64,000 nt of DNA from a virus: positions 1-64,000 of the IMG/VR virus record IMGVR_UViG_3300027763_000036; one strand, written 5' to 3'. The position numbers and the translations under genes were made by a program. Of this stretch, positions 7,662 through 13,202 are shown piece by piece (within the stretch, counting starts at the first letter, position 1; each line of letters opens with the position of its first letter). The notes under the pieces were generated by a model. That model made no database searches and had not been told where the DNA came from. It saw only the letters and a list, made by a program, of their open reading frames with translations.

Positions 7662-7735
7662 TGATCCTGTTTGGATTCGAACCAAAGACCTATTGCTTAG
7701 AAGGCAATTGCTCTATCCAGCTGAGCTACAGGACC
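7662..7735 (-). tRNA. tRNA-Arg (anticodon UCU)
   Basis: GGTCCTG/CAGGATC acceptor, D-arm GCTC/GAGC, anticodon stem ATTGC/GCAAT with loop CTTCTAA, T-loop TTCGAAT; CCA not encoded. Confidence 0.95.
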
Positions 7736-8090: not shown

Positions 8091-8341
8091 GATAATTTTT
8101 TAAATAGTCCAACAAAAAGTAACAATAATGCAGATGCTACAAAGAACACAAGACCCTGTTTGAATCTTACAAATGTTTCTTCCATCTGTATCTCTTCATC
8201 AACAGTATCTAAATCTATGCATAGTTCATTTACTCTATAAACTACTATTTCAGGATCTGCACTTGACTGATATGCAGCAATAATGAGGGACTGTATATCC
8301 CTCTTTTGCTGTTCTAATTTTCTTAACTTTCTGTAAATCAT
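8087..8341 (-). CDS. Coiled-coil protein with C-terminal transmembrane helix
   Basis: 84 aa; GLVFFVASALLLLFVGLF. Confidence 0.7.
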   Translation of the reverse strand: MIYRKLRKLEQQKRDIQSLIIAAYQSSADPEIVVYRVNELCIDLDTVDEEIQMEETFVRFKQGLVFFVASALLLLFVGLFKKLS

Positions 8342-8475
8342 TTGCTTACAGTTTTGTTCTGCACTTGCTTTGTCTGACCATAAGCATCACAGTGGTGAGT
8401 AGTACCGCAACTAACAAAAGATGCTAATACACCAATAAATAAAAACCATAATACTACAATTGCAATTGTTTTCAT
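8338..8475 (-). CDS. 45-aa lipoprotein with CDAY motif (not in ORF track)
   Basis: MKTIAIVVLWFLFIGVLASFVSC-GTTHHCDAYGQ...; lipobox FVSC; ATGA overlap with the next gene. Confidence 0.7.
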   Translation of the reverse strand: MKTIAIVVLWFLFIGVLASFVSCGTTHHCDAYGQTKQVQNKTVSK

Positions 8476-8486
8476 AATCATAAATT

Positions 8487-8831
8487 TTAAAAGGGTAAAT
8501 CTAAATCAACAGGTTGGCTAAAATTTTCCATACCTAATGCGCTATCTAACAGTGCTTGCTTCTTACATGCAAGTTTATGCATCTTAGCATTAACTTGATA
8601 TAGTTTGAGTTTTTCAAACCACATGATATACTTTTCACTTGATCTTGTATTCCAATGTACAACACCTTCTATTCTGTAGAGGTGTGGATTCTTTCTGCTA
8701 TTGCAGTAAGCCACATCAAAATCATATTCTTTCCTGATCTCAATAGCATCTTCAGGTGTAAGATTCATGTTAAGTTTAATCAGAGTGTGGCTACCAAATG
8801 AATGGTAACCAAAAGGGACTGTTTTGTTCAT
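8487..8831 (-). CDS. Hypothetical protein ending in DLPF
   Basis: 114-aa ORF with an SSB-like acidic C-terminal tip. Confidence 0.75.
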   Translation of the reverse strand: MNKTVPFGYHSFGSHTLIKLNMNLTPEDAIEIRKEYDFDVAYCNSRKNPHLYRIEGVVHWNTRSSEKYIMWFEKLKLYQVNAKMHKLACKKQALLDSALGMENFSQPVDLDLPF

Positions 8832-8876: not shown

Positions 8877-9160
8877 CTAGTGACAAGAATATATAGATAA
8901 AGTCAAATTCAAATACTAAGGCAAAGACCTTCTCTTCTACAAAGGCAAATACAAATACTAAGTCTCAATGTTAGCCAATTGCATATAATGCATAACCTGT
9001 CTAACTTGGGAGTTCTATCTCAGTTTTTATAGTTTGAAGAGAAGCGGTAATTATTAGTAATTTTAATTTTATAAGTGGTATCACCACATACTTTATTAAA
9101 AAAATTCTTGTCACTAGATATAAAGAGTAGAGGAATCAGCTTGTGCCTATCCCCTACTCA
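8877..9160 (-). ncRNA. Candidate structured RNA downstream of the 303-aa gene
   Basis: Perfect 14-bp closing stem (9104-9117/8877-8890), inner 9-bp stem (9036-9044/8929-8937), nine in-register hexamers, 5' hairpin GAGTAGGGGA...TCCTCTACTC. Confidence 0.7.
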
Positions 9161-9175
9161 CCTAATACCAGTACA

Positions 9176-10087
9176 CTATTTCTCAGGTGTCATGAATAAG
9201 TCAATGACATTCTGAAATCTAGGATCAACATTGATTCTCAATGCTGCAGCAGCTTTAACATTCAACTCTCGTTGAGCATTAAATTCCATAGTAAGCCTAC
9301 ACAACTCACCTTTGTACTCATCCATAGCAAGAGTATATTCTCTGTTAAGAGCTTCTTCTTGCTTTAGGAAAATAGCAGCTTTATCTGCATTTTCTTTTTG
9401 GATACGTGCATTCTCATCACTAACTAAGTTCTTAACCTTGGCTTTGAAGTAGTTTACACGTTGCTCATACTTGCGGTGCTCTTCAGCAACATCTTCATGC
9501 AATTGCATTAAAGACTGAGAGTCATGATGCTTAGTAATCTTAACAGGAGTTTTCTTATTATCCTCTACATTGAACCATTCAATGCTAGGCATGTTAGATA
9601 ACTCTTTTCTAAGACTAGACAACTTACCATTTTTATGGATAAATTGACCCAAGTGAGATGCCATAGCTTCTACTTGCAAATACTCTGAGTATTCTACATC
9701 AGAAAGTCTAGACCATCCCCATGATTCTTCAACATCTTGAATAACATCATAGTCAGTTGCATACTGTCTCTTAGGTTCCACAAGATGAGAGAAATCAGGA
9801 CGCGTATTCTGGATTCTCTCTATCTCAGCATCTTTACCCTTGATAGCTTCCATAAGGAATGCTTGGCAAGCATGTAAGTCACCCTTGATTTTAAGTTTCT
9901 CAAGGATATTATCCGGAATCACAGATGCCTCTTGCATCATATAAGACTGACCACTAATGGTAATAGTCTTACTGCAGTTGTTATAAGATTCCAACTCACG
10001 TTGAATCTCCAAAGCATTTTGGTTGCACAAGTTAGATACTGATTGTGCTTGGGACATGCTTAAACCCTTGGTAGATAAATTTCTCAT
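9176..10087 (-). CDS. 303-aa alpha-helical/coiled-coil hypothetical protein
   Basis: Long ORF with heptad-rich segments; no catalytic motif recognised. Confidence 0.85.
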   Translation of the reverse strand: MRNLSTKGLSMSQAQSVSNLCNQNALEIQRELESYNNCSKTITISGQSYMMQEASVIPDNILEKLKIKGDLHACQAFLMEAIKGKDAEIERIQNTRPDFSHLVEPKRQYATDYDVIQDVEESWGWSRLSDVEYSEYLQVEAMASHLGQFIHKNGKLSSLRKELSNMPSIEWFNVEDNKKTPVKITKHHDSQSLMQLHEDVAEEHRKYEQRVNYFKAKVKNLVSDENARIQKENADKAAIFLKQEEALNREYTLAMDEYKGELCRLTMEFNAQRELNVKAAAALRINVDPRFQNVIDLFMTPEK

Positions 10088-10140
10088 TGTTTTTTGTTTT
10101 TGAGAGTTAATAAATAAATTGATTTTTAAGTTGATAAAAA

Positions 10141-10166
10141 GAGCAGTTTAACATCATGCTCAGGAT
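10141..10166 (-). ncRNA. Mini H-type pseudoknot, copy 1
   Basis: ATC-CTGAGCAT-GAT...AAACTGCTC, then a U-tract. Confidence 0.65.
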
Positions 10167-10178
10167 AATATTTGAATA

Positions 10179-10535
10179 CTAATCTATTAGATTAGGTTCA
10201 TCTTCCCCTCTAAGATCATAGTTAGTTCTATCATAGAAATCACCATAAGATTCTTCTCTACTGTAGAACTCATCACGGGCAACATCTTCTTGATCATCAA
10301 GATCACTTAACTGATCTTTATATCCTTGTAGTTCTGCTTTAAGTGACTCTATTAATTCTATTTGTTCTTCTCTCCACCATCTGTACTCAAGTGCTTCTTG
10401 ATGTTTGTCTGTTAAATCTTCACAGTCAGCAATTGTTGCAGAAACATTAGGAGTATTATATAAATCATATTCCGCTTGTTCAAGTTCATGAGAAGTTTCA
10501 ACAACAAGTTTAAATAAATCATCTCTTGTAATCAT
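10179..10535 (-). CDS. Acidic coiled-coil hypothetical protein
   Basis: 118 aa, D/E-rich. Confidence 0.75.
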   Translation of the reverse strand: MITRDDLFKLVVETSHELEQAEYDLYNTPNVSATIADCEDLTDKHQEALEYRWWREEQIELIESLKAELQGYKDQLSDLDDQEDVARDEFYSREESYGDFYDRTNYDLRGEDEPNLID

Positions 10536-10563
10536 ATTTTTAAGTTTAATTGGTTACTAATTT

Positions 10564-10693
10564 TTACCCCTCTGCACTCAGTTGTAACACTAATCTTTAA
10601 CCACTATTGATAAGTTGGGTCAAGAAACCATAATTTGTATATATGGTGTTACAACTGCTCACCCTTGGGAAGTGAGTTATGGTGCATTAATAA
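10564..10693 (-). ncRNA. Twister ribozyme (type P1, with long P5 insertion)
   Basis: P1 TTAT/GTAA, L1 UAA, P2 TGCA/TGCA, T2 CC/GG, P4 CTCAC/GTGAG with loop TTCCCAAGG, 3' GA-GGG (T1), 12-bp P5 CAGTTGTAACAC/GTGTTACAACTG. Confidence 0.75.
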
Positions 10694-10719
10694 GAGCAGT
10701 TTGTCTACATGCTCAGGTA
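10694..10719 (-). ncRNA. Mini H-type pseudoknot, copy 2
   Basis: TAC-CTGAGCAT-GTA...AAACTGCTC; covaries with copy 1. Confidence 0.65.
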
Positions 10720-10747
10720 TACGCAGAATATCACTGCCTTTCTATTG

Positions 10748-10880
10748 TGTACTCTCACAAGGTTGCAATCCTTGAATTTGATAGCCTCTGCATATTACTA
10801 TGCTTCATATGCTACTATCTTGGTATAGTATCCACACGCTCAGCATAACTGATTGTGTTTACCTGCTTGGATGAGAGTAT
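10748..10880 (-). ncRNA. Candidate multi-stem junction RNA
   Basis: 8-bp closing stem TACTCTCA/TGAGAGTA enclosing four hairpins; the last (CAAGG-7nt-CCTTG) stacks directly on the closing stem; strand assumed from context. Confidence 0.55.
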
Positions 10881-10994
10881 AATAAATGGCTGTTTATGCT
10901 ATAAACATTTAATACATAGTAATTTGTATGATGAATATTTAACAGGCTAGCTAAACCTGCAGTACTCAACACCCCTATGTAACCATAAAATAAA

Positions 10995-11021
10995 GAGCAG
11001 TTTTATATCCTACTCAGGATA
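10995..11021 (-). ncRNA. Mini H-type pseudoknot, copy 3
   Basis: TATCC-TGAGTA-GGATA...AAACTGCTC, then a U-rich tract. Confidence 0.65.
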
Positions 11022-11026
11022 GTTGG

Positions 11027-11164
11027 TTATCCCAACTGCTCAATAGCAATCGGGAGTCCCTGTTTGTCTAACACTCTTTTTACTGTTTTACCATTAGAGT
11101 ATTTAACATACTGTACAAGGGAGAGGTTACCCTTATACATTTCAATCATAGTTTTGATAATCAT
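11027..11164 (-). CDS. 45-aa hypothetical protein (not in ORF track)
   Basis: MIIKTMIEMYKGNLSLVQYVKYSNGKTVKRVLDKQGLPIAIEQLG*, with an A-rich leader. Confidence 0.55.
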   Translation of the reverse strand: MIIKTMIEMYKGNLSLVQYVKYSNGKTVKRVLDKQGLPIAIEQLG

Positions 11165-11258
11165 AACTTAATATTTTTTAGTGTGAGGACTTGCCTGTGC
11201 TAGGTACACAGGACTTGGGTGTTAATAATAATATTGATTGTGCTCAATATTTAAATAA

Positions 11259-11456
11259 TAGACAAGAGTGTAACAATATCCTACATTGCTACTAGACCGC
11301 TGAGTCATCACTTGAATTAAACTGAATTCCACTTCAGTCAGCTGTATTCTCCCAAGTGGAATCTTGTATAAGAGAATAGATAATGGCATACCACATATTA
11401 CTGCTGCGGTCAACAGGTTCACACTGCCGGATTACTCCCGTGTATAACACTGCCTA
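11259..11456 (-). ncRNA. Candidate ~200-nt structured RNA with an internal pseudoknot
   Basis: Stems TAGGCAG/TTGTCTA and GACCGC/GCGGTC; interleaved TATTCTC/GAGAATA and ATTCCACTT/AAGTGGAAT. Confidence 0.55.
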
Positions 11457-11515
11457 GTTTAAATTAAACTCACATAGCTTTATCAATACTATGTGTAAAA
11501 TACCTGATTTTTAAG

Positions 11516-11701
11516 TCTGCACTAACTTTGGATTATATCACTGCAAATGATAAGTAGCACTATAAATCTCTTTGCAGGAGAAATACAGAACCCAATAGTA
11601 GCCCCACAGGTTTGTCACTGTTTGCTAACAGTAATGAACTTTGCTTGACATCAACAACCCCGTCAAGTATAAACTTGAGTGTAAACCGTATAGAGTGCAA
11701 A
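11516..11701 (-). ncRNA. Candidate ~185-nt structured RNA
   Basis: Closing TTTGCACT/AGTGCAGA; inner ACGGTTT/AAACC-TGT, CTTGAC/GTCAAG, TACTGTT/AACAGTG. Confidence 0.5.
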
Positions 11702-11746
11702 GGTTAAAAACTCCCCCTCAGTTATTTACAGTTGATGTACTAATTA

Positions 11747-11992
11747 TTAAAGATTATCCATAGAGATAATGCTATCAAGGTCACTATATGTACCTTGATA
11801 AACATTACCTTGTAAAGATTCAACTTTAATATTGTTTTCAGATACTTCAAGGAAGTATTCTGTTTTAATGTGCTTAGAAGCTTTCGCGGGAGTTTCTTTC
11901 TTTACAATAACATGTAGTATTACATGTATAAGTATAGAGAAGGAAACACATCCAAGTATAAAGCCAATAAGGAATGAATCATTTGATTTCAT
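11747..11992 (-). CDS. Single-pass membrane protein
   Basis: Start moved to 11992 (MKSNDSFLIGFILGCVSFSILIHVIL), downstream of a terminator. Confidence 0.7.
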   Translation of the reverse strand: MKSNDSFLIGFILGCVSFSILIHVILHVIVKKETPAKASKHIKTEYFLEVSENNIKVESLQGNVYQGTYSDLDSIISMDNL

Positions 11993-12016
11993 ATTTATGG
12001 TTTTAGTTATTACTTT

Positions 12017-12041
12017 AAAAAAATGCAGGCCTTTCACCTGC
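12017..12041 (-). terminator. Intrinsic terminator
   Basis: GCAGG-TGAAAGG-CCTGC-ATTTTTTT. Confidence 0.7.
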
Positions 12042-12237
12042 TTGGGATAATATCCTCAATGGTATGACATTATTGGTTAGTCATACAAGTTGCGGAGAGG
12101 ATTACTGCCTCTCACTCTGTAAGTATAAGTTACATAGATAATCTGTTCCTATCATTTGTTCAAGGATACTGATTAGTATGGATATGGACAATCTTCTGAT
12201 TTCATATTATATGTTTTTAATTGTTAAACAATATAGA

Positions 12238-12405
12238 TTACCCTGCAAGAGAGTAATCCTTTTGCATTACTACCACTAAACCAACTGCTGGATGCTGGTA
12301 TTCATGTAGTACTGTATAACCTTCTTTACATTTCATATGTATAAGGTCTTTAAGCTCTATGCCCATAGACATAGCTTGATCTTCTGTAATGGTAATTTCT
12401 TCCAT
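12238..12405 (-). CDS. 55-aa hypothetical protein (not in ORF track)
   Basis: MEEITITEDQAMSMGIELKD...YSLAG*; leader TAGTAACCAATTAAA shared with the 10535 gene. Confidence 0.6.
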   Translation of the reverse strand: MEEITITEDQAMSMGIELKDLIHMKCKEGYTVLHEYQHPAVGLVVVMQKDYSLAG

Positions 12406-12751
12406 TGTATATTGATTTAATTGGTTACTAGGTAAGCAGTTAGCTATATAAAATCTTTTAACTATACTATACTAGTATAGTAAAATACAGATATATTAGT
12501 GTTAATAAATAGAGAGAGTGTTTAGTAGTAACATAGACTAATAGATTAAAACAAGCTTGTTTCCGCACTGGTTATCAGTAAGTTATGGTTATCCACAGAA
12601 TGTTTGCAATAACAGCAGAGGTACCCTGCGGTGACCGCCACAAAGACAGTCTCCTTTTTTGTCTTATTAAAGATTCCACAGGCTGAAACTCCTTAGAGTT
12701 TCTCCTTTCTAAGCATAACAAGTTGTATTATACACTCCCGGCTCAGTAATT

Positions 12752-12790
12752 AAAAAGGGAGAGCATGTATTTCTACACACTCCCCCTTTT
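12752..12790 (-). terminator. Intrinsic terminator
   Basis: GGGGGAG...CTCTCCC followed by TTTTT, after ORF 12798. Confidence 0.7.
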
Positions 12791-12797
12791 AGCACCC

Positions 12798-13202
12798 TTA
12801 CAGGTTCAACACCTTGGATGTCTCCTCTACCTCATCAAACATGTCATCAGTGATTTCTGCACCAACAACTAATGAGGATAAGGCCCACCATGGACTACGT
12901 GGAGTTCCATCAGCATTCTTGCTACGGGTAACAGAACCTAAGTAAGTACCACCTGTTTCCATGTCTTGCTCATAGGATTTCCTATAAACATGGACATTGT
13001 TGGCTACATGCTTTTGCTGATTTTCATCTAAGAACTCAACAGTTGCAAGTTTGTACTCAACTTTCTCAATGCCGTTTTCCCCCTCAACCTCATAGTCAAA
13101 AACATTGTCACTCAGTCTTTTAAGAGTGCCTTTGATTTTTGCTACTTTAACCAAGTTACCGCGTGAAGTTGTTTGCTCCACAAATTTTAATGCAATTCCC
13201 AT
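12798..13202 (-). CDS. Hypothetical beta-rich protein, possibly OB-fold
   Basis: 134 aa with an acidic tail. Confidence 0.8.
   Translation of the reverse strand: MGIALKFVEQTTSRGNLVKVAKIKGTLKRLSDNVFDYEVEGENGIEKVEYKLATVEFLDENQQKHVANNVHVYRKSYEQDMETGGTYLGSVTRSKNADGTPRSPWWALSSLVVGAEITDDMFDEVEETSKVLNL

Follow-up and report, generated by a model that had tools for sequence, protein, structure and literature searches.

A covarying, twister-like RNA family upstream of early genes in uncultured lake phages

Locus and layout of the motif

The stretch of DNA analysed here, called the window, covers the first 64 kb of IMG/VR virus record IMGVR_UViG_3300027763_000036, which is 113.5 kb long. Terminase, portal and major head protein are among its genes, which marks the source as a tailed phage, and most of the window's DNA is found in freshwater metagenome runs. 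A blastn search of positions 9000-13000 against deposited phage records gave no match. From about 16000 to 7000, all open reading frames (ORFs) lie on the minus strand. This region carries a 130-base element with the layout of a twister ribozyme, followed by genes for proteins of 118 and 303 amino acids and preceded by a Hatchet ribozyme:

10693-10564, minus strand: twister-like element, 130 bases, with the order of its elements read in the sequence
10179-10535, minus strand: 118-aa ORF downstream of the element, its ATG 28 nt after the P1 3' strand
11502-11638, minus strand: Hatchet ribozyme (Rfam RF02678, 81 bits, E = 3.7e-15)

Hatchet, which is also self-cleaving, lies about 810 nt upstream of the motif on the same strand. 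The two co-occur in relatives, with Hatchet matches again upstream and on the same strand in loci L002, L009, L024 and L028. Such clustering of self-cleaving ribozymes with one another and with phage genes is known (PMC10085705). Between 11800 and 10100, no terminator-like sites were found and promoter-like sites occur at chance level only; a single transcript probably runs from Hatchet through an RNA cluster into the genes. Neither the 118-aa ORF nor six small neighbouring ORFs have a match among the PHROGs. Downstream of the 303-aa gene lies a tRNA gene (window 7662-7735, minus strand, 71 bits) that is conserved in nearly all relatives. Overlong tRNA matches of 100-117 nt, which may contain inserts, occur in motif-bearing loci L096 (7318-7417 and 8321-8434) and L033 (481-597).

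An earlier note, made from the sequence alone, had recognised the elements of a type P1 twister in canonical order on the minus strand, and every element that it listed is found where it had been placed:

10690-10693, minus strand: P1 5' strand UUAU, pairing with GUAA at 10567-10564
10687-10689, minus strand: L1 5' strand U^AA, with UAA in 108 of 109 distinct copies
10683-10686, minus strand: P2 5' strand UGCA, 4 bp with UGCA at 10576-10573
10681-10682, minus strand: CC, proposed 5' half of pseudoknot T2 (putative pairing)
10672-10676, minus strand: P4 5' strand CUCAC, pairing with GUGAG at 10662-10658
10663-10671, minus strand: L4 loop UUCCCAAGG, nearly invariant in the family
10669-10667, minus strand: T1 strand CCC within L4, covarying with the 3' GGG
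10664-10663, minus strand: proposed T2 strand GG within L4
10658-10662, minus strand: P4 3' strand GUGAG, partner of 10676-10672
10579-10657, minus strand: P5, with a base CAGUUGUAA / UUACAACUG of 12 bp here and a variable interior
10577-10578, minus strand: AG linker from P5 to the P2 3' strand, invariant in alignment A1
10573-10576, minus strand: P2 3' strand UGCA, partner of 10686-10683
10568-10572, minus strand: L1 3' strand GAGGG, of which GGG at 10570-10568 is the T1 strand
10564-10567, minus strand: P1 3' strand GUAA, partner of 10693-10690

A linker, AUAA, separates the CC from P4. The note's P5 with a 12-bp base and a large insertion is borne out by the pairing of 10657-10646 with 10590-10579, which encloses a branched interior. 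The unconstrained minimum-free-energy fold includes P1, P2, P4 and P5 (-34.8 kcal/mol, z = -2.63). In twister, the active site comprises T1 with an A-A pair, the A that follows the scissile bond and a guanine belonging to a GA dinucleotide (PMC5408937). By analogy, the predicted scissile bond is that between U10689 and A10688, with A10688 as the putative general-acid equivalent and G10572 as the putative general-base equivalent; the latter, named as the GA guanine in the note, is indeed the first G of GAGGG at 10572-10568.

A family of covarying RNAs in phage contigs

In IMG/VR, this core is shared by more than 150 phage contigs. Relatives were first gathered via the 303-aa neighbour gene; conservation among these extends to the two halves of the core but not to the P5 interior. 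Searching IMG/VR with the 3' half (16 nt) gave matches in at least 120 contigs. A scan of genome contigs returned mostly chance 16-mers and seven true copies, all on small MAG contigs. The simple copies, here called type A, were collected by the 3'-half scan and further scans and comprise 109 distinct sequences in 106 loci. Alignment A1 contains 87 rows; counts of P2 and P4 variants refer to a first set of 91 copies. Nearly all loci of the family have the motif between genes, and in about one third of the members a same-strand ORF starts 16-60 nt downstream of it.

The proposed structure pairs in 91.7% of the cells of the 87-sequence alignment, compared with 83.1% when partners are shuffled and 31-44% when they are slid by one to three columns; none of 500 shuffles reached 91.7%. 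In P4, changes on both sides are seen at all five pairs and 98.4% of cells are paired; the first 91 copies contain at least 12 different Watson-Crick stems. P2 is less variable, with both-sided changes at one of its four pairs (nine sequences). UGCA/UGCA accounts for 74 of the first 91 copies, the compensatory UGUA/UACA for nine and the wobble UGUA/UGCA for two. In A1, the four P2 pairs form in 87 of 87 rows, the varying pair being C-G in 76, U-A in nine and U-G in two. P1 is short and differs from copy to copy. Both sides change in four of its four columns and 68% of its cells are paired (87 members), so that its mean contiguous length is 2.9 bp versus 2.0 bp with shuffled partners, the best of 200 shuffles giving 2.3 bp. 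P5 is found in every copy, with a total length of 40-202 nt (median 85). Its base is nearly invariant in sequence, with both-sided changes at six of the 12 pairs, and its interior varies in both sequence and length.

The G-U pairs form only on the minus strand, and the element therefore acts as an RNA in minus-strand orientation. The neighbouring ORFs are all on the same strand as the motif. Judged by sequence comparison, the motif is far beyond chance: it recurs in this many phage contigs, and T1 and every helix show compensatory changes. In a scan of a 171-nt slice, the HDV-like model RF02682 (HDV-F-prausnitzii) gave a weak match at 10590-10700, with 15.4 bits and E = 0.83 against a gathering score of 44. 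It is nonetheless extremely improbable that the element is an HDV-like ribozyme or a chance fold: the match places a U at the position of the catalytic C, its 5' arm upstream of 10693 is not conserved in relatives, and the covariation backs the twister helices, so that the family alignment contradicts both.

Copies of the family frequently occur as tandem pairs, 0-350 nt apart (L028:7607-8124, L095:639-979, L058:8246-8880, L474 and L139). In one RNA contig, the GAGGG of one copy is followed by a single base and then by the UAA of the next. Directly 3' of GAGGG, the sequence AACUUAUAGAAACUU(A/U)AUUAAU occurs in several unrelated contexts (L016, L024, L056, L095, L109, L111 and L118) and may be an early-gene signal.

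Pseudoknots, relatives and comparison with known ribozymes

Since the first search pattern had fixed GAGGG, separate scans were run for copies with each G of this strand altered. The T1 pairs are CCC/GGG in 110 sequences, CCA/UGG in 16, CAC/GUG in three or four and UCC/GGA in one. GAUGG accompanies the loop UUCCAAAGG in 16 distinct sequences, GAGUG accompanies UUCACAAGG in three or four, and GAGGA accompanies UUCCAAGG in one. In these swaps C-G is replaced by A-U or U-A, all in the predicted antiparallel register, and uncompensated changes are found in about seven sequences. T1 is thus supported by covariation, because compensatory changes occur at all three of its pairs.

For T2, the earlier note had proposed that CC/GG replaces the usual GC/GC as a compensatory change. 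The replacement itself holds family-wide: CC occurs together with the L4 GG in 105 of 109 copies, and the 5' variants are solely C to U and hence wobble-compatible, with one mismatch seen besides them. No T2 covariation was found, and the four bases are almost invariant in the 109 copies. Two scans of IMG/VR found no variants of the loop GG for the commonest P4, and two scans for variants of the 5' CC gave chance matches only among the matches listed, none with the full motif. Position and complementarity suggest the CC:GG pairing. According to a twister mutagenesis study (PMC5113685), the second T2 pair may be any Watson-Crick pair and no single substitution of G13 is tolerated in the rice twister; its text, as consulted, gives no result for the matching double change at G13. 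In a survey of about 2,600 natural twisters, 'NC' served as the search criterion for the 5' half of T2, and activity was independent of L4 length, with wide tolerance of imperfections (PMC11662667).

The overall architecture of the phage motif is that of a type P1 twister with the optional P5 (RF03160; Roth et al. 2014 as reviewed in PMC5408937), with the same order of P1, L1, P2, L2, P4, L4, P5, P2', L1' and P1'. A published parse of twister reads P1, UAA, a 4-bp P2, GC, an optional P3, P4, GUCCCAAGC, P4', GUAAA, P2', GAGGG and P1' (PMC8501958 Table 1). The UAA opposite GAGGG is identical in the phage motif and in published twisters, and the 4-bp P2, the L4 core CCCAAG and a short, weak P1 are likewise common to both. 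T1 CCC:GGG is a twister feature that covariation confirms in the phage motif. The comparative evidence thus agrees with the fold and the active-site bases (U^AA, GA, T1 CCC:GGG and the CCCAAG loop) that had been read from the single sequence.

On the level of individual elements, however, there are systematic differences. Whereas T2 is GC:GC in twister, it would be CC:GG in the phage motif. L4, which is GUCCCAAGC in twister, is 9 nt long here and bears an extra U on its 5' side; this additional nucleotide, pointed out in the earlier note for the one locus, is present throughout the family; the phage loop UUCCCAAGG also departs from the twister L4 consensus G-U-CCC-A-A-GC-C. The pair closing L4 is a near-invariant G-C in twister and varies freely between C-G, A-U and U-A in the phage motif. 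The 3' strand of L2 is AG instead of RUAAA. P5, optional in twister, is obligatory here, and 9-10 bp of its base are conserved in sequence. Some phage copies, unlike twister, also hold a conserved domain of about 200 nt within L4.

In these latter copies, designated type B, the same 5' half sits 250-350 nt upstream of the rest (loci L030, L037, L039, L042, L051, L058 at 8246-8580, L075, L098, L110, L118 and L135). The insert occupies the position of the type A extra U, between the P4 5' strand and UCCCAAGG, and consists of the conserved ~200-nt domain (GUGGAUAUAAAGAC ... AAGAUGUGAAACCAC) and a hairpin, all within L4. The long-range P4 covaries across the insert, which could be a control domain.

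Type C relatives (loci L024, L036 with two copies, L044, L096, L121, L123, L143 and L149-L151) keep P5, AG, UGCA and GAGGG. An ordinary hairpin replaces P4 and L4, there is no pseudoknot and no P1 or U^A step, and GGG pairs with a CCC (in some, GAG with CUC) directly 5' of AA-UGCA. In the sequences compared, the GGG strand appears never to lack a CCC to pair with, be it the one in L4 or a local one, and this fits T1. Type C shows that the module of P5 and 3' strand has an existence of its own. Since type C drops the L1 loop and T1, part of the conserved function of the family may not need cleavage. Identical P5 interiors occur with different 5' types, which indicates that the modules recombine.

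In searches with the Rfam models, none of the three twister families (twister-P1, P3 and P5) matched the window at gathering level. At E<=10, twister models found nothing in a 2.8-kb slice, in the 171-nt slice or in the whole 113.5-kb record (RF03160), and relatives with a shorter P5 gave no match either. The cmsearch with twister-P1 that the earlier note had suggested as a check therefore came back empty. Across the window, narrow slices and 32 related loci, Rfam placed no twister, twister-sister or other ribozyme at the motif; its matches elsewhere were Hatchet and tRNAs only. Type B copies had no match at gathering level. Twister-sister (RF02681) vaguely resembles twister in sequence and shape and has a multi-stem junction (PMC5408937), and the unknotted type C relatives recall a pseudoknot-free twister-like RNA of this kind. 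Yet twister-sister cuts the opposite strand and does not have the key bases of twister (PMC5408937), whereas the phage motif keeps both these bases and T1, and the twister-sister model gave no match at the motif. Full-text literature searches returned no account of this variant.

We consider it likely that the motif is a self-cleaving ribozyme of the twister class, type P1, in which P5 is obligatory, and that it represents a phage-borne subfamily outside the coverage of Rfam. As such it would be a twister in the broad sense, a distinct subfamily beyond the operational definition that the Rfam models provide. A folded, non-catalytic RNA that uses a twister-like scaffold to hold a protein or a ligand, or to display the variable P5, would resemble an active site in structure only, and we regard this as distinctly unlikely. 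Its main support comes from type C, where P5 and the 3' strand persist without the cleavage loop or the L4 pseudoknot. The failure of the Rfam twister models to match at all, the conservation of the P5 base and the AG linker far beyond the needs of an optional twister stem, and the sharing of P5 interiors between different 5' halves point the same way. So does one RNA-library contig that crosses the predicted site uninterrupted, which is weak evidence as the RNA data consist of contigs assembled from four metatranscriptome runs, in which ends cannot be seen and DNA may be present. Against a mere scaffold stands the pattern of conservation: the A after the scissile bond, the guanine and adenine of GA and T1 are invariant or, apart from the roughly seven sequences mentioned above, changed only with compensation. 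The U before the scissile bond, which is changeable in published twisters, is kept in 108 of 109 copies. Moreover, a scaffold has no need for an unpaired UAA opposite GAGGG.

Read as a twister, the family is a large natural subfamily in uncultured lake phages that occupies a fixed place before early genes, beside other ribozymes. Its departures from the consensus are systematic, namely a CC:GG at the proposed T2, a longer L4, an obligatory and conserved P5 and, in some copies, a large L4 insert, and they offer natural test cases for how far the geometry of T2 and L4 may change. Because the standard covariance models miss this subfamily, ribozyme surveys of phage genomes undercount twisters.

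Predicted cleavage and the upstream RNAs

In the mechanism that we propose, the minus strand would be transcribed as part of a long early transcript carrying Hatchet and several small RNAs. The RNA would fold into P1, P2, P4 and P5; T1 would arise as the loop CCC docks on the 3' GGG, and T2 as the CC that follows P2 docks on the loop GG. The ribozyme would then cut itself between U10689 and A10688, general-base catalysis falling to G10572 and general-acid catalysis to A10688. This would leave a 2',3'-cyclic phosphate at the end of the upstream RNA cluster. On the other side of the cut, the 118-aa and 303-aa genes would have an mRNA that opens with a 5'-OH and retains the whole folded ribozyme as its 5' end. 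The mRNA would in this way be uncoupled from the upstream RNAs and probably be stabilised. The most likely role of the predicted cut is thus to separate the upstream RNA cluster from the mRNA of the 118-aa gene. Synthetic insulators such as RiboJ, in which a leader ribozyme removes the RNA upstream of it so that the mRNA starts with a structured 5'-OH end, are a counterpart, although RiboJ-type insulators are engineered and of the hammerhead type rather than twister. Twister ribozymes have been studied well, yet their biological roles are largely unknown, and a phage early-gene leader is a tractable setting in which to ask what self-cleavage is for.

Most of the RNA contigs that cover the motif derive from relatives, which have only the conserved halves in common with it. 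An apparent joint of 10658 to 10564, considered as a circle, was rejected, as it reflects two abutting tandem copies. A different picture emerges around Hatchet, whose cut lies between A11635 and U11634 according to the Rfam alignment and the structure paper (PMC6561176). One river metatranscriptome yielded a 488-nt contig of depth 59 with a circular permutation: its sequence extends to 11188, continues with one letter (G in the RNA sense) and resumes at 11634. Relatives have a G at the position of 11187. A second study yielded a permuted contig from 11634 to 11258. Contig depth over 11188-11634 is 60-220, versus 4-20 in the flanks. With reads placed at 85% likeness, contigs that derive from relatives and a tandem DNA repeat as a possible source, these data suggest that window 11187-11638 (minus strand) gives rise to an abundant RNA, circular or tandem and about 448 nt long, that contains Hatchet and starts at its cleavage site.

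The 3' site of this putative circle, AGUC(C/G)|UCA, is conserved 400-450 nt after every Hatchet in the relatives, even where P1 differs. The circle junction would re-create the Hatchet site. Cutting of the circle 3' end by Hatchet itself, through an alternative P1, was considered: such a P1 could have just 3-4 bp, UCA(C) with UGA, and no covariation beyond UCA was found at this site in relatives. A 45-aa ORF (window 11027-11164, minus strand) starts 23 nt after the circle 3' site, and its coding start is conserved in relatives.

These observations bear on a further explanation, in which the main job of the motif would be to give the upstream RNA a cyclic-phosphate end that, together with the Hatchet 5'-OH, permits ligation or circularisation, mRNA processing being secondary. 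The arrangement would suit such a role: the RNA cluster between Hatchet and the twister variant is poor in ORFs, all three lie on one strand, and no terminator-like site intervenes. The permuted RNA-library contigs indicate a circular or tandem RNA whose start coincides exactly with the Hatchet cleavage site. The observed circle junction, however, has its 3' end near 11187 and not at the twister site 10689, and no contig joins 10689 to 11634. The ORF starts that follow within 16-60 nt in about one third of the members also fit a leader role instead. We therefore hold it to be very unlikely that ligation is the primary function, and favour the separation of the upstream RNAs from the early mRNA.

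A broader version of the processing role is conceivable, though on present evidence we think it unlikely. Hatchet, the twister variant and its L4-expanded and unknotted relatives might together form a phage RNA-processing cassette that cleaves the early transcript into small, stable RNAs, of which at least one would be circular, with the P5 base and the L4 insert serving as control or cargo domains rather than passive parts.

Between the circle and the motif, a further RNA stands out at window 10748-10877 (minus strand). Contigs in two freshwater RNA runs, with a depth of 60-88, match only this piece of about 130 nt. It corresponds to a cloverleaf-like RNA described in the earlier note and is probably an abundant small RNA shared with relatives.
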